Shown here piece after piece: positions 3,408-10,891 of a stretch of DNA of 10,891 nt. How positions within the stretch are numbered: the first letter of the stretch is position 1; the number at the start of each line of letters is the position of its first letter. Both the position numbers and the translations under genes were made by a program. Under the pieces are notes generated by a model that was not told the origin of the DNA, ran no database searches, and was given only the letters and a program-made list of their open reading frames with translations. The stretch lies in the UHGV virus genome UHGV-0104605. One strand, given 5' to 3'. The DNA comes from a virus.

Positions 3408-4760
<1,353 letters not shown>

Positions 4761-4809
4761 TCCCCACCTCAATCTCGATAACCAAAAACAAACTATTTTT
4801 CATTTAAAA

Positions 4810-4885
4810 ACAATGGAGTTTGTTTTTCACGCCCCTTTTTACAATATTTCTTGTTTACAACATACAATCTTTCTTGTAATTTTAA
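4810..4885 (+). promoter_or_regulatory. Left operator OL1-3 and pL, 434 type
   Basis: Three ACAA-N6-TTGT sites at 4810-4823 (acaatggagtttgt), 4841-4854 (acaatatttcttgt) and 4864-4877 (acaatctttcttgt). A plausible -35/-10 pair (tttaca about 4854-4859, taattt about 4877-4882) overlaps the sites and is oriented toward N. Confidence 0.75.
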
Positions 4886-4921
4886 GCCATCAGCAGGACG
4901 CACTGACCACCATGAAGGTGA

Positions 4922-4952
4922 GGCTCTTAAAAATTAAGCCCTGAAGAAGGGC
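4922..4952 (+). promoter_or_regulatory. nutL (boxA-like element and boxB hairpin)
   Basis: ggctctta (4922-4929), a 7/8 match to boxA CGCTCTTA, followed by boxB gccctgaagaagggc (4938-4952). The flanking sequence matches lambda nutL as I recall it, with one possible substitution in boxA. Confidence 0.85.
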
Positions 4953-5220
4953 AGCATTCAAAGCAGAAGGCTTTGGGGTGTGGTGAAGCCAGCTAGTCAC
5001 TGGCAAGTGCTTACCTACTGTTGAGCGGTGAAGCGCTCCCAACGCTAGCAATAGCGTGGACGAGATGGGGAGCCGCGGGCGATAAGGCCGCCATAACGCG
5101 CACGTTGTCGCATGGAAAAATCGCTGGGGTGCCGGTTATACCCCTCCGAATGAGACTCAACAAGCTGGAGCTAGACTACCAGCCACCACACCACCAAAGC
5201 TAACTGACAGGAGAATACAG

Positions 5221-5547
5221 ATGGATGCACAAACACGCCGCCGCGAACGTCGCGCAGAGAAACAGGCTCAATGGAAAGCAGCAAATCCCCTGTTGGTTGG
5301 GGTAAGCGCAAAACCAGTTAACCGCCCTATTCTCTCGCTGAATCGCAAACCGAAATCACGAGTAGAAAGCGCACTGAATCCGATAGACCTTACGGTACTG
5401 GCTGAATACCACGAACAGATTGAAAGCAACCTGCAACGTATTGAGCGCAAGAATCAGCGCACATGGTACAGCAAGCCACGCAGTGAAATGGGGGTGACTT
5501 GTGTAGGTCGCCAGAAAATGAAATTAGGCAGCAAACCACTTATTTGA
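5221..5547 (+). CDS. N: Antitermination protein N, lambda type
   Basis: 108 aa. MDAQTRRRERRAEKQAQWKAANPLLVGVSAKPVNRPILSLNRKPKSRVESALNPIDLTVLAEYH matches lambda N including the Arg-rich boxB-binding motif; the C-terminal 25 aa or so differ at several positions. RBS AGGAGA 6 nt upstream. Preceded by a roughly 270-nt leader after nutL. Confidence 0.92.
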   Translation: MDAQTRRRERRAEKQAQWKAANPLLVGVSAKPVNRPILSLNRKPKSRVESALNPIDLTVLAEYHEQIESNLQRIERKNQRTWYSKPRSEMGVTCVGRQKMKLGSKPLI

Positions 5548-5642: not shown

Positions 5643-5826
5643 TAAGAATCAATGGTGTGGACAATTCAAACGATGCAATGGATGCAAGCTGCAATCGGAA
5701 TGCATGGTTAAGCCTGAAGAAATGTTTCCTGTGATGGAAGATGGGAAATATGTCGATAAATGGGCAATACGAACGACGGCAATGATTGCCAGAGAAATTG
5801 GTAAACAGAACAACAAGGCTGCCTGA
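5626..5826 (+). CDS. ral: Restriction alleviation protein Ral (lambda-like)
   Basis: 66 aa, MTTTIDKNQWCGQFKRCNGCKLQSEC..., the expected size and position (downstream of N in the pL operon). The sequence matches my recollection of lambda Ral, with a CxxxxxCxxC cluster. Confidence 0.6.
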   Translation: MTTTIDKNQWCGQFKRCNGCKLQSECMVKPEEMFPVMEDGKYVDKWAIRTTAMIAREIGKQNNKAA

Positions 5827-5865
5827 TGGTGGCCTTTATTTTTGGCATAAACAACAGAGGCTAAC

Positions 5866-6162
5866 ATGGGATTTAAAGGTACTGAAGGTAAGTGGGAAAT
5901 AATGATGGATGGCGATGATATTAAAATCATCCAGGCAGACTCTCTTGAAAATGGCGCAGGCTGGCGTTCGTATATTGCAATCTGTGAGGAAGTTCAATGC
6001 ATTGAAGATGCCAATCTAATAGCGGCAGCACCTGACCTTCTCGAAGCACTTCAGTTATTACTTAAGCAATCCAAAAATAGAACAACGACAACATATCCAG
6101 AATGGTATGGAGCTGTTAATAAAGGTCTTGCAGCAATCAGCAAGGCTCTGGTAGGTGAGTGA
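5866..6162 (+). CDS. Hypothetical protein (98 aa), pL-operon accessory gene
   Basis: Track ORF with RBS AGAGG upstream of ATG 5866. Acidic N-terminal half. Occupies the position of ea10 or P22 gene 17 in related phages, but no sequence assignment is possible. Confidence 0.5.
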   Translation: MGFKGTEGKWEIMMDGDDIKIIQADSLENGAGWRSYIAICEEVQCIEDANLIAAAPDLLEALQLLLKQSKNRTTTTYPEWYGAVNKGLAAISKALVGE

Positions 6163-6362
6163 TGTGCGAGTTTTATGAAGCAGATATCAAACGCCCAGAA
6201 ATGGCAAGTGATGCGACATTACGTGATTACTTCGCGGCAAAGGCTATGCAAGCAATGATTAGCAATCCATCGATTATCGATAATGATTCTGATGGAGCTG
6301 TTAATTATGCAGCAAGCGCTGCATATAAGTTTGCAGACGCAATGCTCAAAGCTCGCGAATAA
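6159..6362 (+). CDS. Hypothetical protein (67 aa)
   Basis: Track ORF. The start (GTG 6159 or ATG 6162) overlaps the stop of the upstream gene. Ala-rich and acidic. Followed immediately by a hairpin. Confidence 0.45.
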   Translation: MMCEFYEADIKRPEMASDATLRDYFAAKAMQAMISNPSIIDNDSDGAVNYAASAAYKFADAMLKARE

Positions 6363-6457
6363 GCACTGTGTATTCATTCCAACGAGTGAATACACGGAGC
6401 AATGTCGCTCGTAACTAAACAGGAGCCGACTTGTTCTGATTATTGGAAATCTTCTTT

Positions 6458-6482
6458 GCCCTCCAATGTGAGGGCTTTTTTA
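6458..6482 (+). terminator. Rho-independent terminator within the pL operon (tL2/tL3-like)
   Basis: gccctc (6458-6463), loop caatgt, gagggc (6470-6475), then tttttt (6476-6481). Lies between the 67-aa gene and the cIII-like gene and would need N-mediated antitermination to be read through. Confidence 0.75.
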
Positions 6483-6547
6483 TATGCATACCAATAACGC
6501 TTCACTCGAGGCGTTTTCGTTATGCAATCAAACAGAAGGAGCATCCT

Positions 6548-6718
6548 ATGCAACAGTTCGCTATTGCAGGGGCGGCATCGGTTCGCCCTTTCAACCCGAT
6601 TTTATCGGTACAGCATTCACGAAAAAACATTTTAACCGGAGCAGACTTTAAACAACCAAGAATGAAAAGTTTGCTCGAAAAGCTTTGGGATATTTTGAAA
6701 CAACAAGGCCGTCCATGA
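6548..6718 (+). CDS. cIII-like small protein (56 aa), candidate FtsH inhibitor
   Basis: RBS AAGGAG then ATG 6548. MQQFAIAGAAS...KSLLEKLWDILKQQGRP resembles lambda cIII (MQYAIAG ... ESLLERITRKLRDGWKRLIDILNQPGVP, from memory) at both ends. The upstream part of track ORF 6443..6718 crosses the terminator and is discarded. Confidence 0.45.
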   Translation: MQQFAIAGAASVRPFNPILSVQHSRKNILTGADFKQPRMKSLLEKLWDILKQQGRP

Positions 6719-6822
6719 GTTTTACAGATAACTGGTCAGACGAAGAATTCATTCGTCAGATGAACAAAATGCTCAATCAGCACAAAGAACAGGAGAAAGA
6801 TGATGATTCTGACTCTGAATGA
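6715..6822 (+). CDS. Possible small ORF (35 aa, acidic C-terminus)
   Basis: ATG overlaps the cIII-like stop (ATGA). Translates to MSFTDNWSDEEFIRQMNKMLNQHKEQEKDDDSDSE. Overlaps the next gene by 23 nt. It could be a Kil-position peptide or spurious. Confidence 0.25.
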   Translation: MSFTDNWSDEEFIRQMNKMLNQHKEQEKDDDSDSE

Positions 6823-7111
6823 TAAGCGTGAAATATCGCAAATAATCGCAAGTTTTACTGATGAAGATTACGAGCGAATCAACAGTGAAGTTGATCGCCT
6901 CTGCAAACGTTGCGACCCAATAAGCGAAATGCTTCGCTCATATAAACCAGATGAACACACTAAGGACGCTATCGACTGGCTGGAAGATGATGACTGTAAC
7001 TATCAGGAAAAAGCCGCTGAATGGTTCTGGGATGCAATAACCGAAAGAGTTAAGGCTGAATATGCCTTCGCAATATTCAAACGCAGACACATTTTTGGAG
7101 AAGCTGCATGA
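6800..7111 (+). CDS. Hypothetical acidic protein (103 aa) translationally coupled to recT
   Basis: RBS AGGAG upstream of ATG 6800. The stop overlaps the RecT start (ATGA at 7108-7111). Acidic, with a DWLEDDDCNYQE segment. No recognisable nuclease motifs. Confidence 0.55.
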   Translation: MMILTLNDKREISQIIASFTDEDYERINSEVDRLCKRCDPISEMLRSYKPDEHTKDAIDWLEDDDCNYQEKAAEWFWDAITERVKAEYAFAIFKRRHIFGEAA

Positions 7112-8010
7112 GCAATATCGTTGAATTCGTTAAACAGCAGGAGCAGTTATTCTGCGGAGCATTGACTGAACAGACGGTGACATGGGCTAAGGAAAGCCAG
7201 TTTGCAATTCAGTATTTCCAGAAAAACGATTACCTGGCTAAAACAGCACTGGCAAATCCAACCAGCGCACAGAACGCCATCATCAATGTTGCGGCGATCG
7301 GCATCACCTTAAACCCGGCCAGCAAACTGGCTTATCTGGTTCCTCGCGACGGCATGGTGTGCCTTGATATCAGTTACATGGGATTACTTCATCTTGCGCA
7401 ATCGACAGGATCAATTAAGTGGGGGCAATGCAAACTGGTGTACTCAAACGACACCTATGAATCAAATGGCCTTGATTCAGCACCAACCCACAAATACAAC
7501 GCATTTGGTGAGCGAGGCTCTATTGTTGGAGGTTATTGCACGGTTAAAACAGCAGATGGTGACTACCTGACTGAAGAAATGAGTCTGGCAGAAATTAAAG
7601 CTGTGGAAGCAACGAGCAAGGCAAAGAATGGACCGTGGAAAACATTCTGGGAAGAGATGGCGCGTAAAACAATAGTTAAACGCGCCAGCAAATACTGGCC
7701 TAAAGCCCAGCGACTGGATAATGCCATTCACCTGCTTAACGAAGATGAAGGTATGCATCAGGAACCAGTTATGCCGCACAAATCAGAGGAAGATATCCGC
7801 GAAGATGAACGGAAACGCCAGCAGGAAATAATGGATAAAGCACAACTTCTTTGCGATGAAATGGCTCAGGCAGAAAACATGGATGATTTGAAGCGATATT
7901 TTGCAGAAGCATATCGCCTGACAGCTGGAATGAAATTGCAGCAGAACGTACAAGCCATTTACGCAGAATGCAAAGCGAAACTGGAGGTTGCCAGTGAGCA
8001 AACTGTATGA
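7108..8010 (+). CDS. recT: RecT-family single-strand annealing protein (recombinase)
   Basis: 300 aa. Segment NGPWKTFWEEMARKTIVKRASKYWP matches the conserved RecT core (Rac RecT NGPWVTHWEEMAKKTAIRRLFKYLP, from memory). RBS GGAGAAG upstream. Confidence 0.85.
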   Translation: MSNIVEFVKQQEQLFCGALTEQTVTWAKESQFAIQYFQKNDYLAKTALANPTSAQNAIINVAAIGITLNPASKLAYLVPRDGMVCLDISYMGLLHLAQSTGSIKWGQCKLVYSNDTYESNGLDSAPTHKYNAFGERGSIVGGYCTVKTADGDYLTEEMSLAEIKAVEATSKAKNGPWKTFWEEMARKTIVKRASKYWPKAQRLDNAIHLLNEDEGMHQEPVMPHKSEEDIREDERKRQQEIMDKAQLLCDEMAQAENMDDLKRYFAEAYRLTAGMKLQQNVQAIYAECKAKLEVASEQTV

Positions 8011-8476
8011 AATTGCCAATGAATACGCAAAATTGATGGATTCAGATTTAGAGCCAGAGATGATTGCTGACACAATAGAAGGCATGGAAGGAGAATTTAC
8101 CGATAAAATAGAGCAACTTCTTGCCATTATTAAAAATGAATCTGGTTATGCTGAACGCCTCAAGGACGAGGCAAAGTCACTGAATGAGCGAGCCGCAGTA
8201 ATTCAAAATAAGATTGACAGCATTATGGCGTATATAGCGTCATCGCTTGAAATGGTTGGCAAGAAAAAGATTCGAGCAGGTATTCACCAGGTAACAATCC
8301 GCAAACCATCAGAAACTGTAGAAATCATCGACTCAAGCGCCCTTCCTCCTGAATACGTTGAGTTTGAAACGACAATTAAAGCCGACAAACTGGCAATCAA
8401 ACACCAACTAAAAGCAGGAATAAATATCCCCGGCGCTCAACTCAAAGTTGGGAAACCTTCACTTCTTATCAAATAA
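7994..8476 (+). CDS. Mu Gam-like / Siphovirus Gp157-family protein (recombination-associated, host-nuclease inhibitor candidate)
   Basis: About 160 aa from GTG 7994 (GGAGG 6 nt upstream; the track gives TTG 7988). N-terminal coiled-coil-like region and a basic C-terminal domain (KKKIRAGIHQVTIRKPSETVEII). Overlaps the recT 3' end. Family assignment is from recollection of architecture and genomic context. Confidence 0.5.
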   Translation: MSKLYEIANEYAKLMDSDLEPEMIADTIEGMEGEFTDKIEQLLAIIKNESGYAERLKDEAKSLNERAAVIQNKIDSIMAYIASSLEMVGKKKIRAGIHQVTIRKPSETVEIIDSSALPPEYVEFETTIKADKLAIKHQLKAGINIPGAQLKVGKPSLLIK

Positions 8477-8802
8477 TGGTATCGCCTATGAAAAAGACTC
8501 CATGGGAGAAATGGGAAGTCGATTTCTTGCGCGAAGTAGCGGCGACAATGCCAGTTGAAGTTATCGCTGAAAAACTGGAAAGGACTGAAAAAGCAGTAAT
8601 GGCGAAAGCAACAAGGATTGGCGCTGACATTGTTAGCCGACTTCGTGGAAGACGATGGACAAGAGCCGAAGTATCACTTTTCGGTAAGTTCTCCGCAGAA
8701 GAAATAGCAATTGCAACCTGCCGCTCAATTTATTCAGTAAGAGCTATGCGATACAAGCTAAAAAAACTCGATGAAGAAAGAGCAGGCATACGAATAAATT
8801 AA
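8476..8802 (+). CDS. Hypothetical protein (108 aa) with an internal two-fold repeat
   Basis: Start overlaps the previous stop (TAATG). Two similar segments ([41 protein letters not shown] and [39 protein letters not shown]), each resembling a small helical DNA-binding unit. Confidence 0.5.
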
Positions 8803-8818
8803 CAAAGAGGAATTTACC

Positions 8819-8983
8819 ATGAGAGGACTTGCATACAATCCCGGCATTCTTCCGGCAGAAATGATTATTCGCCAACGCGTAAAGCCAATGCCATCAAGAG
8901 AGGAATTGCTTAAGAGAAATTCTTTTCCATCAGTAAATCAAAACAAATATCTGAATGCAATGTGGCGGAGTGGGAAGAAATGA
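8819..8983 (+). CDS. Small hypothetical protein (54 aa)
   Basis: RBS AAGAGGAA then ATG 8819. The stop overlaps the next gene's ATG (ATGA at 8980-8983). Below the track cut-off. Confidence 0.4.
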
Positions 8984-9456
8984 AACAAATGACACTAATT
9001 GAGATGGATGGATTTCTGAAAGGTAAATGCATCCCAAGTGATTTAAAGGTTAACGAAACAAACGCTGAATATCTTGTCCGTAAGTTCGGTGAACTTGAAT
9101 CAAAACTGGAAACGGCGTTGCGGGAGTGTCGTTCTGCTGGAATCACGATTGATAACCTTGAGGCTAAATGCGCGAAGATGGCTGCTGAAAATACCTCACT
9201 TAAGCAATCTGAGAAGGAATTTAATGACTTTTGTCGTGAGGAGTTTAGCGAATGGGAAGATGATGTTACTGAAACCCCAGCCACCGACGCTTTCCTAGCT
9301 GAAGTTCGAGCGCAGGGCGTGGATATGGCTCGCAACGCGATGATTGATTTTTTTGATGGTGAAGTTGGGCCAAACAAGAACGTTCCGGGGCTGATTAGAG
9401 GCGCAGAGATATGCGTAAGTATTGCTGCCCAGCTTCGTAAAGGAGGCAACCAGTGA
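8980..9456 (+). CDS. Ead/Ea22-like modular protein, paralogue 1
   Basis: ATG 8980 (the track starts at GTG 8962). Shares segments with paralogue 2: [17 protein letters not shown] and a QLRKG C-terminus. Predicted coiled-coil N-terminal part. Confidence 0.6.
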
Positions 9457-10151
9457 GCGAAATTAACTATAAAGAACTGCGCGAGGCGGCGAAACAGGCA
9501 ACGCAAGATGAATGGGTAGCATATATTTTGCCGGGTCATAACGGCATTTATCCTGCGCGCACGTCTGAGGGTAGGCATTGCGGATACTTTATTGACTGGC
9601 CTGGCGTCTGTCAGGGGCGGGAGAGCATCAGCATGAGCATCAGAACCTACGCAGTGAATTGCAATGACGCATGGCTAAACACCGAAGGTGATGACATCTC
9701 CGGCTCATACGTTAAGTACAAAGACCATCAGGAAGTGGTTGCCGCTCTTGAGGCCAAGTGTGCGGCGCTGGCAGCGGAGAGTTCGGGGATGAAGAAGTTC
9801 TGCAAAGACGCTGCATTCGATGCCGATTACGAAGCAGAGCTAGGTATGGAGCGTGGTGGATTCAGTGATGCGCTTAACGAAATCAAAACCCCAGCCACCG
9901 ATGCTTTTCTAGCTGAAGTGAAGACTGAAGCACGCAAGGAAGGCGCTTATTTTGTGGCGAACAGAATGTTGGCAGCCTGGAAAGCTGGTTTTATTGATGA
10001 TACTGCGAAGAACGCCGCGGATATTGCCCGGATGATCCTTACCTCTACTGAGTTTATGGCTAATGCGCCGGAAGGCGATTTTGATCGCTCATTCTCTGAT
10101 GGCGTTCTCGAAGATATCGCCGAACAGCTTCGTAAAGGAGTCATCCAATGA
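9453..10151 (+). CDS. Ead/Ea22-like modular protein, paralogue 2
   Basis: GTG start overlapping the previous stop (GTGA), with AAAGGAGG upstream. N-terminus [15 protein letters not shown] parallels paralogue 3 (MSKIDYQKLREIAEK). Internal modules are shared with paralogue 1. Confidence 0.65.
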   Translation: MSEINYKELREAAKQATQDEWVAYILPGHNGIYPARTSEGRHCGYFIDWPGVCQGRESISMSIRTYAVNCNDAWLNTEGDDISGSYVKYKDHQEVVAALEAKCAALAAESSGMKKFCKDAAFDADYEAELGMERGGFSDALNEIKTPATDAFLAEVKTEARKEGAYFVANRMLAAWKAGFIDDTAKNAADIARMILTSTEFMANAPEGDFDRSFSDGVLEDIAEQLRKGVIQ

Positions 10152-10594
10152 GCAAGATTGATTATCAAAAGCTTCGTGAAATCGCTGAAAAAACAAAAAT
10201 TGCTGGTGAAGCACCTGTAATGCCTTTCGATCAGCGAATTAATGCGCTTAACGATTTTATGAAGCACTTTTCGCCAGATATCGCGCTGGCATTGTTGGAT
10301 GAATGGGAAAGAAACCAGCAATACATAAAACGCCGCGATCAGGAGAACGAGGATATTGCGCTAACGGTAGGGAAGCTGCGCGTTGAGCTTGAGGCAGAAA
10401 AACAGCGGGCAAAGGATCTATTTATGGAAAATGCCCGGCTTAAGTCAGGTATAGCCCGTCTGATACACCTCGGTATTCGATATGCAGATGTTGAGGTCAT
10501 GAGAATTGCTGGAGATGCCCAGCTTTCTACCCCATGCACTGACAGCATCATAAACAGCATTGCAACAGGCATTCGCATCAAAGGAGGTGAGTAA
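10148..10594 (+). CDS. Ead/Ea22-like modular protein, paralogue 3
   Basis: ATG overlaps the previous stop (ATGA), with AAAGGAG upstream. Shares the N-terminal module with paralogue 2. Coiled-coil-like middle (ELEAEKQRAKDLFMENARLK). Confidence 0.6.
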   Translation: MSKIDYQKLREIAEKTKIAGEAPVMPFDQRINALNDFMKHFSPDIALALLDEWERNQQYIKRRDQENEDIALTVGKLRVELEAEKQRAKDLFMENARLKSGIARLIHLGIRYADVEVMRIAGDAQLSTPCTDSIINSIATGIRIKGGE

Positions 10595-10770
10595 TGCGTG
10601 TGGCATGTATCGGCTTGTTACCGTACCCGACTCGTTTTTTGGCTTCTGCGCTAATTGCAAAGCCACATGTCCTGATGGCTGACAACATCATCCCGGCACC
10701 AAAGCGCCGCCATACCGGTATTGCATCGGCACGACGAGCAGCAAAGAGACGCAGGAGAGCAAAACGATGA
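10594..10770 (+). CDS. Possible small protein (58 aa) with a highly basic C-terminus
   Basis: AAAGGAGGTGAG RBS then ATG 10594 (TAATG overlap). Ends ARRAAKRRRRAKR. Composition is unusual, so it could be a frameshifted remnant. Confidence 0.3.
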   Translation: MRVACIGLLPYPTRFLASALIAKPHVLMADNIIPAPKRRHTGIASARRAAKRRRRAKR

Positions 10771-10891
10771 AAAACCGTAAAGCAAAGATTCTGTTAGTTC
10801 GTAGAAACGCTCCTGGCGTCTGGCAGTGGGTGAGACTCAGCAACCGACGGATGGGGTTAATGAAACATTACGGGATGATGGATTGTGGTTT
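10767..10891 (+). CDS. Possible ORF, partial (runs off the window end)
   Basis: ATG 10767 overlaps the previous stop (ATGA). Begins MKNRKAKILLVRRNAPGVWQWVRLSNRR. Open to the window edge. Confidence 0.3.
   Translation, partial: MKNRKAKILLVRRNAPGVWQWVRLSNRRMGLMKHYGMMDCG

Follow-up and report, generated by a model that had tools for sequence, protein, structure and literature searches.

A lambdoid prophage 'ea' block of two gene families with conserved islands and reassorted cassettes, and a likely early role in anti-defence or host modulation

Three short genes, here called g1, g2 and g3, follow one another on the + strand at positions 8980-10594 of the viral genome UHGV-0104605 (the window, that is the whole stretch of 10,891 nucleotides analysed), and raise the question of which families they belong to, how their shared segments arose and what their products might do. 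g1 (8980-9456, 158 amino acids (aa)), g2 (9453-10151, 232 aa, with a GTG start) and g3 (10148-10594, 148 aa) form the accessory 'ea' block in the early-left (pL) operon of a lambdoid prophage that is P22/HK620-like and has its integration site next to sbcB, and are located downstream of RecT and the Gam-like Gp157 and upstream of xis/int. Positions 8800-10891 are 100% identical to 994390-996481 of the E. coli EH01-18-04-A chromosome (NZ_CP063515.1), and the three open reading frames (ORFs) agree with the RefSeq coding sequences (CDSs) of that genome. The stops and starts overlap throughout, by ATGA between the upstream DUF2737 gene and g1, GTGA between g1 and g2, ATGA between g2 and g3, and TAATG between g3 and a following 58-codon ORF (orf58), and g1-g3 encode translationally coupled, largely helical proteins from two families. 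A preliminary description of the locus had taken the genes for three tandem Ea22-like paralogues; the tandem genes and their shared modules are borne out by the ORFs, the RefSeq CDSs and the repeats, but only g2 and g3 match the Ead/Ea22 profile of Pfam (PF13935). Our overall reading, which we hold to be moderately probable, is that of an 'ea' block of two families, with cassettes reassorted at conserved islands and with early proteins that would bind proteins of the host or of rival prophages. Confidence is high for the anatomy and the recombination, and moderate for the proposed anti-defence role.

By sequence comparison, g1 is a member of the EaE/Oad2 family, which has no Pfam model and appears as a separate family represented by phrog_614 and phrog_14548. 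BLASTP relates g1 to HK446 gp27 (Oad2) at 2e-56 with 56% identity, the N-terminal 64 or so residues being almost identical, and to HK75_28 at 3e-73 with 72% identity, and the match to phrog_614 is at 1.3e-58. The homologues HK446 gp27, HK97 gp37, HK75_28 and HK620 hkaH have the same N-terminal module (N0), the same islands B, T and Q, and the same QLRKGGNQ end as g1. No match of g1 to PF13935 was found at E<=1, nor to any other Pfam family, apart from weak coiled-coil noise. The position of g1 is also that of the family, next after the DUF2737 gene (8819..8983, + strand, 54 aa, Pfam PF10930 at 2.6e-31), to which it is coupled, and behind genes of the recombination/anti-RecBCD group, and HK446 gp27 likewise directly follows a DUF2737 gene. 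The order DUF2737 gene, EaE-type gene is seen in HK446 (gp28/gp27), HK75 (HK75_29/28), HK620 (hkaI/hkaH) and P22 (orf56/eaE), and in HK97 as well, and this constant coupling suggests that the two may be a functional pair. The protein consists of the N0 module, the B island (copy 1 at 9157..9188, where the coiled-coil constant segment starts), a first variable cassette of type V1-0 (9196..9273), the T island (copy 1 at 9272..9305), a second variable cassette of type V2-0 (9322..9429) and the QLRKGGNQ tail. Type V1-0 is found also in HK75, HK620 and P22 EaE, while V2-0 differs from the corresponding cassettes of Oad2 and HK75. Both cassettes of g1 are thus different from those of Oad2, V1 being of the HK75/HK620 type and V2 of a third type.

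The third gene belongs to the other family. g3 matches the full PF13935 profile (1-139) at 1.6e-23 and 84.2 bits, and BLASTP aligns it with lambda Ea22 at 6e-25 over residues 1-87, which comprise the N helix and the coiled-coil core; it aligns with P22 EaD too. The layout is an N helix, a conserved coiled-coil core NQQYIKRRDQENEDIALTVGKLRVELE (about 10313-10393), a short private C-terminal part and a GIRIKGGE tail. The MSxIxxxxLRE helix, the core, the GIRIKG(G)E end and the genomic region are common to g3, lambda Ea22 and P22 EaD, in keeping with the published Ea22 architecture, in which a coiled coil stands between a variable N part and a variable C-terminal domain (CTD) (PMC7093339, PMC10834534). 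Unlike lambda Ea22, for which the CTD has been solved by nuclear magnetic resonance, g3 has a C-terminal part of only about 60 aa that is unrelated to it. A PDB sequence search with g1, g2 and g3 gave no meaningful match, and none of the three has a part homologous to the lambda Ea22 CTD structure. No BLASTP match was obtained between g3 and Oad2.

g2 combines the two families, with an Ead/Ea22 N-terminal domain (about aa 1-95) joined to a P22-EaE-type body (aa 96-232) in which the B island, cassette V1-2, the T island, cassette V2-1 and the end QLRKGVIQ follow in that order. The N-terminal domain matches PF13935 at 3.8e-15 and 57.1 bits (gathering score 27 bits) with residues 2-108 on profile positions 1-94 of 139, so that g2 covers about the N-terminal two thirds of the profile whereas g3 covers all of it; of the Ea22 pattern of N helix and coiled-coil core, g2 has only the N helix. 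The C-terminal 137 residues match P22 EaE at 4e-57 (BLASTP), with the last 90 or so aa almost identical, and further matches are to phrog_14548 at 3e-71 on residues 93-230, to phrog_614 at 1.2e-49 and to Oad2 at 3e-11 (BLASTP). The second copies of the islands lie at 9747..9778 (B, LEAKCAALAAE) and 9886..9919 (T). In P22 EaE (NP_059592), to whose B-V1-T-V2-Q part aa 96-232 of g2 correspond, the N-terminus is short and V1 is of the type found in g1, and the gene follows the DUF2737 gene, whereas g2 carries the Ead/Ea22 domain of about 95 aa and is the second gene of its block, one gene further on. In HK620, the genes hkaH-hkaG have the arrangement DUF2737, EaE-type, Ea22-type with overlapping stops and starts, like the block described here but without the extra chimeric gene, which in the window stands between the two and is flanked by the junction repeat; 79 of 138 related loci have this two-gene form, more than any other. 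With an EaE-type g1, a chimeric g2 and an Ea22-type g3, the block is therefore not a set of three Ea22 paralogues, and genes annotated 'hypothetical / ead-Ea22-like' are now sorted into two families.

The segments that the genes share are visible also as DNA repeats. The 16-mer CAGCTTCGTAAAGGAG is repeated without change at 9430-9445 and 10125-10140 (no match in 200 shuffles), as had been described, and is the core of a 65-nucleotide (nt) direct repeat, D1, which is 75% identical between 9420-9484 and 10115-10179. Copy 1 contains the QLRKGGNQ end of g1, the Shine-Dalgarno (SD) sequence GGAG at 9442-9445, the GTGA overlap and the N-helix codons of g2, and copy 2 correspondingly the QLRKGVIQ end of g2, GGAG at 10137-10140, the ATGA overlap and the N-helix codons of g3, so that each copy encodes both the C-terminus of one gene and the ribosomal binding site of the next. 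The second repeat, previously given as 33 bp with three mismatches, is 34 nt long (9272-9305 and 9886-9919) with 2 mismatches and none expected by chance; the third mismatch is the next base (9306/9920). A third repeat, D3, of 32 nt (9157-9188 and 9747-9778, 75% identical) underlies LEAKCA, which had been noticed before only in the proteins. At the protein level, the sharing of segments is upheld by BLASTP, where g1 and g2 align at E=3e-8 across LEAKCA and beyond and g2 and g3 align over the N-terminal 15 aa only (8/15 identical, E=0.006), with no match between g1 and g3. Segments of 16-65 nt repeated in tandem genes can mislead short-read assemblers, and the preliminary description had raised an assembly artefact as an alternative; a collapse of similar paralogues is, however, a negligible prospect here. 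The source genome is complete, the repeats are shorter than sequencing reads, the g2 protein is recorded from 92 contigs, and an independent metagenome-derived viral contig (IMGVR_UViG_3300029468_000058) is 100% identical over 4875 bp of the window (5742-10616), showing that the block is not a product of assembly.

The junctions also bear on a conserved feature of the proteins themselves. All Ea22 proteins end in K/R-G-E, the significance of which is called unknown in the Ea22 papers, where a ribosomal binding site is not mentioned for the motif (PMC7093339, PMC10834534). The terminal K-G(-E) is encoded by AAAGGAG, and GGAG is placed 7 nt before the next start at both copies of D1 (9442-9445 before GTG 9453, and 10137-10140 before ATG 10148), with the same spacing at the g3/orf58 junction (10583-10586 before ATG 10594). 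This last junction is of a second type (10570..10596, ...ATTCGCATCAAAGGAGG TGAG TAATG) that encodes the IRIKGGE end of g3 together with the SD sequence of orf58, and its GGCATTCGCATCAAAGGAG is common to lambda ea22. For Ea22/EaE-like ORFs, 127 of 155 distinct 3' contexts combine GGAG within the final 15 nt plus stop codon with a coupled ORF downstream; at coupled junctions of uncurated ORFs, taken as a control, GGAG is present in only 105 of 373. A second tally took 141 contexts in which GGAG precedes the next start: in 122 of these the spacer is 6-7 nt, both for ...KGE*, where the start lies 4 nt after the stop, and for ...KGGNQ*, where the start overlaps the stop. As this spacing holds whichever way the peptide ends, the motif tracks the start of the next gene and not the end of the protein's own. 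We infer that the conserved terminal K-G(-E/G) would be mainly a by-product of the AAAGGAG ribosomal binding site of the next gene, and the SD sequence of a coupled downstream gene would be a simple reason why K/R-G-E is conserved at the end of Ea22 proteins. Two observations speak against it in part: GGAG is in the same reading frame in 129 of 141 contexts, which is expected for homologous junctions but leaves room for a constraint on K-G at the peptide level, and lambda keeps AAAGGAGAGTGA without a coupled downstream gene. The lambda ea22 gene (L243, NC_001416, 29847-29870 region) ends ...GGCATTCGCATCAAAGGAGAGTGA, the same junction DNA as in g3, followed by no coupled ORF and by a gap of 191 nt before ea8.5; its terminal SD sequence may be a relic left by deletion.

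An alignment of g1 with 25 database relatives and the reference phage proteins gives a common order for EaE-type genes: N module, B island (LEAKCA..AAEN), V1, T island, V2 and Q island, the last consisting of QLRKG, the SD sequence, the overlapping start and the opening codons of the gene that follows. Conservation of the islands extends to their nucleotide sequence, and the cassettes between them cannot be aligned with one another and differ in length, from about 15 to more than 60 aa. For typing, 190 distinct scaffold proteins from about 240 IMG/VR loci and from protein matches were used; as proteins of the window itself had served to find these loci by similarity, the type frequencies and the codon-conservation figures are biased and ignore kinship, which counts against taking them at face value. 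The 190 proteins contain 5 N, 18 V1 and 14 V2 types in 42 combinations. g1 is N0, V1-0, V2-0 and g2 is N1, V1-2, V2-1, while Oad2 is N0, V1-10, V2-11, HK75_28 is N0, V1-0, V2-3 and P22 EaE is N3, V1-0, V2-1. V1-0 is paired with 12 different V2 types, and all four combinations of the two commonest V1 with the two commonest V2 types are present (27, 4, 10 and 33 proteins). A search of the literature for EaE function or for an earlier description of the island and cassette structure found only one preprint from 2026, discussed below.

Could the islands be kept solely for the needs of the protein, for oligomerisation or binding, with the segments between them diverging in place through rapid point mutation and indels and no exchange of cassettes? 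The islands do lie in or beside helices of the low-confidence structural model of g1, and the protein is constrained, as seen from the low ratio of nonsynonymous to synonymous changes (dN/dS) in close relatives. Against this stand the synonymous codons, which vary much less than codon usage would lead one to expect: within the islands the mean codon homozygosity is 0.74-0.99 compared to 0.30-0.41 expected from the codon usage of the genes themselves (kinship ignored), with 0.81 against 0.39 for LEAKCA (99 unique genes), 0.76 against 0.35 for the T island (66 genes) and 0.99 against 0.35 for GIRIKG (76 genes), and in QLRKG the Leu codon is CTT and the Gly codon GGA in 113 of 113 cases each. Together with the unalignable cassettes, the four V1/V2 combinations, and the repeat-bounded g2 indel and abrupt homology border to P1-like plasmids described next, this largely refutes divergence in place, to which we give very little credence, even if island conservation could partly reflect protein function and not a role in recombination, a point that tells against our reading.

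Several observations point to exchange at the islands. In blastn comparisons of window positions 8700-10891 with 239 loci, the endpoints of high-scoring segment pairs (HSPs) are clustered at 9260-9330, 9420-9520, 9740-9810, 9860-9950, 10100-10180 and 10260-10400, and also at B island copy 1 (9157..9188), with 201 HSP starts in the bin 9420-9439 and HSP ends crowded at 9440-9539, mostly at 9480-9519. Two relatives are g1/g2 recombinants, one a g1-type protein with the g2 beta-domain between two LEAKCA copies (P0125) and the other g1(1-84) joined to g2(41-232) (L004). The number of genes varies as well, with one gene in 33, two in 79, three in 19 and four in 7 of 138 distinct complete clusters, and about 40 architecture strings. 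In one contig (L162) g1 is followed directly by g3, without g2; window positions 8807-9484 and 10115-10590 both map to it and overlap at 2443-2507, and this contig therefore has a single hybrid 65-nt junction where the two copies in the window flank g2. Junction copies 1 and 2 are thus the left and right boundaries of the g2 indel relative to L162. The recombination-prone cassette system proposed in the preliminary description is in this way supported, by the reassorting types, by copy numbers from 1 to 4 and by a g2 whose presence or absence is bounded by the 65-nt repeat.

Part of the block is found outside lambdoid prophages as well. P1-like phage-plasmids (about 90 kb, carrying phd/doc, humD-like and theta genes) share window positions 9441-10891 with 98.7% identity, and in megablast comparisons the homology has an abrupt left breakpoint at the junction SD sequence. 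One of them, plasmid p1_035148 (NZ_CP029365.1, L002), has g2, g3 and the downstream genes at 4001-5439, and a protein identical to g3, WP_112031925.1, is found on such plasmids. The high identity and the identical g3 protein indicate a recent exchange between lambdoid prophages and P1-like phage-plasmids, as far as can be judged from the sequences. In E. coli genomes, 638 of 3603 matching places are on plasmids. Single alleles are rare, the full g1 allele being present in 4 of 5426 complete E. coli genomes (pieces in 919), the full Oad2 allele in none of them (pieces in 1087) and the whole three-gene block in one (pieces in 2455).

In the mechanism that we propose, the islands would be the places where phages and prophages residing in one cell cross over, by homologous or homeologous recombination. 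Such crossing over would reassort cassettes, fuse N-domains and alter the gene copy number, and g2, with the 65-nt junction repeat on either side, would be one unit that can be inserted in this way. The likely agents would be the low-fidelity Rad52-like recombinases encoded by the same operons, whose action at these islands is presumed. Phage Rad52-like recombinases are known to generate mosaics where homologies are short and diverged (De Paepe et al. 2014, PMC3945230), and the present case resembles those mosaics in the short, partly diverged homologies that border the exchanged fragments and in having RecT in the same operon. It differs in that, to judge from the sequences, exchange points lie inside genes as well as at their borders, so that proteins and not whole genes are reassorted. 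Mosaic 'ea' genes in lambdoid phages are already known, and the block is an ordinary, well-documented kind of phage mosaicism; the value of the finding is practical rather than conceptual.

The diversifying selection suggested earlier is not supported. Among close g1 relatives the differences fall 10/2/39 on positions 1/2/3 of the + frame codons and dN/dS is 0-0.28 (3 gap-free genes only), which is purifying, and point-mutation positive selection in the cassettes accordingly finds no support among these three genes. The diversity arises by replacement of whole cassettes and not by demonstrated positive selection on point mutations.

The precedent for the function of EaE-type proteins is HK446 gp27, named Oad2 (OLD anti-defense 2) in a preprint of July 2026, where it rescues OLD toxicity and abolishes OLD defence, and is found to bind the P2 OLD tetramer, to prevent its activation and to block its tRNase activity (bioRxiv 10.64898/2026.07.10.737580). 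In the same work Oad2 is related to P22 EaE, is said to be sometimes fused to EaD/Ea22 proteins, and has a homologue in HK75 that is 54% identical and gave no OLD inhibition. The identity between HK446 gp27 and HK75_28 came to 54% here also, indicating that the right proteins were identified. For the Ea22 type, the proteins of lambda and Shiga toxin (Stx) phages are tetrameric and bias development towards lysogeny, with no partner known, and deletion of ea22 leads to faster lytic development and fewer lysogens (PMC7093339, PMC10834534). The earlier statement that the function of Ea22-family proteins is essentially unknown is thus outdated.

By analogy, early-expressed proteins of the g1-g3 type would bind proteins of the host or of rival prophages, with the constant helical and coiled-coil parts giving oligomerisation and a scaffold and with V1 and V2 setting the target specificity; the EaE-type parts would have Oad2 as their model, and Ea22-type parts may, by their lysogeny bias, influence the choice between lysis and lysogeny. 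A part in early anti-defence or host modulation, with the cassettes deciding the specificity, appears likely from our analysis because of the early-operon position beside recombination and anti-RecBCD functions, the homology to Oad2, the anatomy of scaffold and cassettes, and the extreme reassortment of alleles. The OLD specificity most likely resides in the V1/V2 cassettes, since Oad2 and HK75_28 differ mainly in these and otherwise by a few point changes in the parts that are constant. g1 and the body of g2 are now linked to Oad2, the only EaE-type protein with a reported mechanism, and the map of constant N, B, T and Q and variable V1 and V2 parts points to the residues likeliest to set its target specificity. 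g1 itself probably does not inhibit P2 OLD, because its V1 is of the type found in the inactive HK75 homologue and its V2 is of a third type. HK75_28, which differs from Oad2 mainly in the cassettes, is inactive, and the anti-OLD activity can therefore not be transferred to g1; as single alleles are so rare, function should not pass from one allele to another by name.

g1-g3 might instead all be developmental modulators of lysis and lysogeny, like Ea22 of lambda and the Stx phages, with variable C-terminal parts that address different host pathways and no part in anti-defence. In its favour, g3 and the N-terminal half of g2 do belong to Ead/Ea22, the N helix and the core of g3 are found also in lambda Ea22, the ea22 deletions speed lysis and reduce lysogens, and the block is located in the region equivalent to exo-xis in lambda. 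We nevertheless consider this rather unlikely, as g1 and the g2 body belong to the EaE family, whose sole tested inhibitory member targets an immune nuclease. The Ea22 phenotype, for which there is no known molecular target, could moreover stem from interference with host systems, and the two readings are compatible. A module for prophage defence or superinfection exclusion, expressed in the lysogen, would fit a variable accessory prophage region, as such diversity is typical of defence islands, but is very improbable: the genes are deep in the pL operon, which is silenced by the repressor in the lysogen, they are coupled to the upstream early genes with no promoter-like site above chance, they have no PADLOC match, and the tested relative acts in anti-defence and not in defence.

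Several points weigh against the functional part of our reading of the block as early anti-defence or host modulation. The functional information on the EaE family comes from one preprint and one allele, Oad2, with the 54% homologue inactive, and g1 is nearer to that inactive homologue (72%) than to Oad2 (56%); what g1, g2 and g3 themselves would do is read from their relatives. The defence models of PADLOC-DB gave only chance-level matches (E 0.027-0.033), and searches of NCBIfam and of PDB sequences with the block proteins gave nothing above chance. AlphaFold2 models are too poor for fold comparison, with a mean predicted local distance difference test (pLDDT) score of 55 for g1 (26-sequence alignment; low-confidence helices H26-52, H57-88, H102-126 and H135-153) and of 38 for g2 (24-sequence alignment), and the fold, the oligomeric state and the picture of a scaffold with specificity cassettes are therefore what we infer. 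A bolder extension, which we regard as doubtful, is that the EaE/Oad2 scaffold is a programmable anti-immunity platform, in which each combination of V1 and V2 would be directed against a different variant of the OLD family (ABC ATPase-TOPRIM) or of other host or prophage defence proteins and the B, T and Q islands would be dedicated recombination linkers. If true, rapid swaps of specificity cassettes would be a phage counterpart of antigenic variation by gene conversion, and tandem arrays such as g1-g2-g3 would be multi-target anti-defence batteries.

Two of the EaE-type relatives, P0240 and P0239 (E. coli, 226 aa), owe their extra length to an insertion in the coiled-coil/V1 region. The name 'HNH endonuclease' given to P0240 is probably an annotation carry-over, as no Pfam HNH domain was found in it, and conversion driven by a homing nuclease was set aside for that reason.

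The early-left operon on the + strand contains, in order, genes for a cI-type repressor (3727-4359), N (5221-5547) followed by Ral, RecT (7108-8010, recombination), the Gp157/Mu-Gam-like protein (7988-8476, anti-RecBCD/recombination group) and DUF2737, then g1-g3, small genes and xis/int. An embedded small RNA or an internal transcription unit behind the conserved islands was rejected, since an Rfam search of the whole window at gathering thresholds gave no match and scans of the block for promoters and terminators were not above shuffles. Two long antisense ORFs, one of 222 aa over g1 (8910-9578, - strand) and one of 124 aa over the g2/g3 junction (9947-10321, - strand), were dismissed as genes, because the 10/2/39 pattern, with substitutions concentrated at the third codon position, supports the reading frames of the + strand; they are probably spurious and could mislead gene callers.

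Between the Gp157/Gam-like gene and the DUF2737 gene there is an ORF of 108 aa (8476-8802, + strand) that matches phrog_11492 and part of phrog_323 ('transcriptional regulator, D5-like'), with a weak winged-helix match (HTH_12) slightly below the cut-off. Downstream of g3, orf58 (10594-10770, + strand) matches phrog_13831 at 1.4e-39 over 58 of 58 positions and has an SD sequence 7 nt upstream, but is unannotated in RefSeq, where the stretch from the g3 CDS to the following one is left empty. A gene for DNA polymerase III theta (HolE/Hot-like) is located downstream of the ea block both in the prophage (L001, 15473-15754) and in the P1-like plasmid (L002, 6927-7178). The prophage copy is a pseudogene, interrupted by an internal stop, and the prophage block is followed by a DUF550 (MazG-like) gene.

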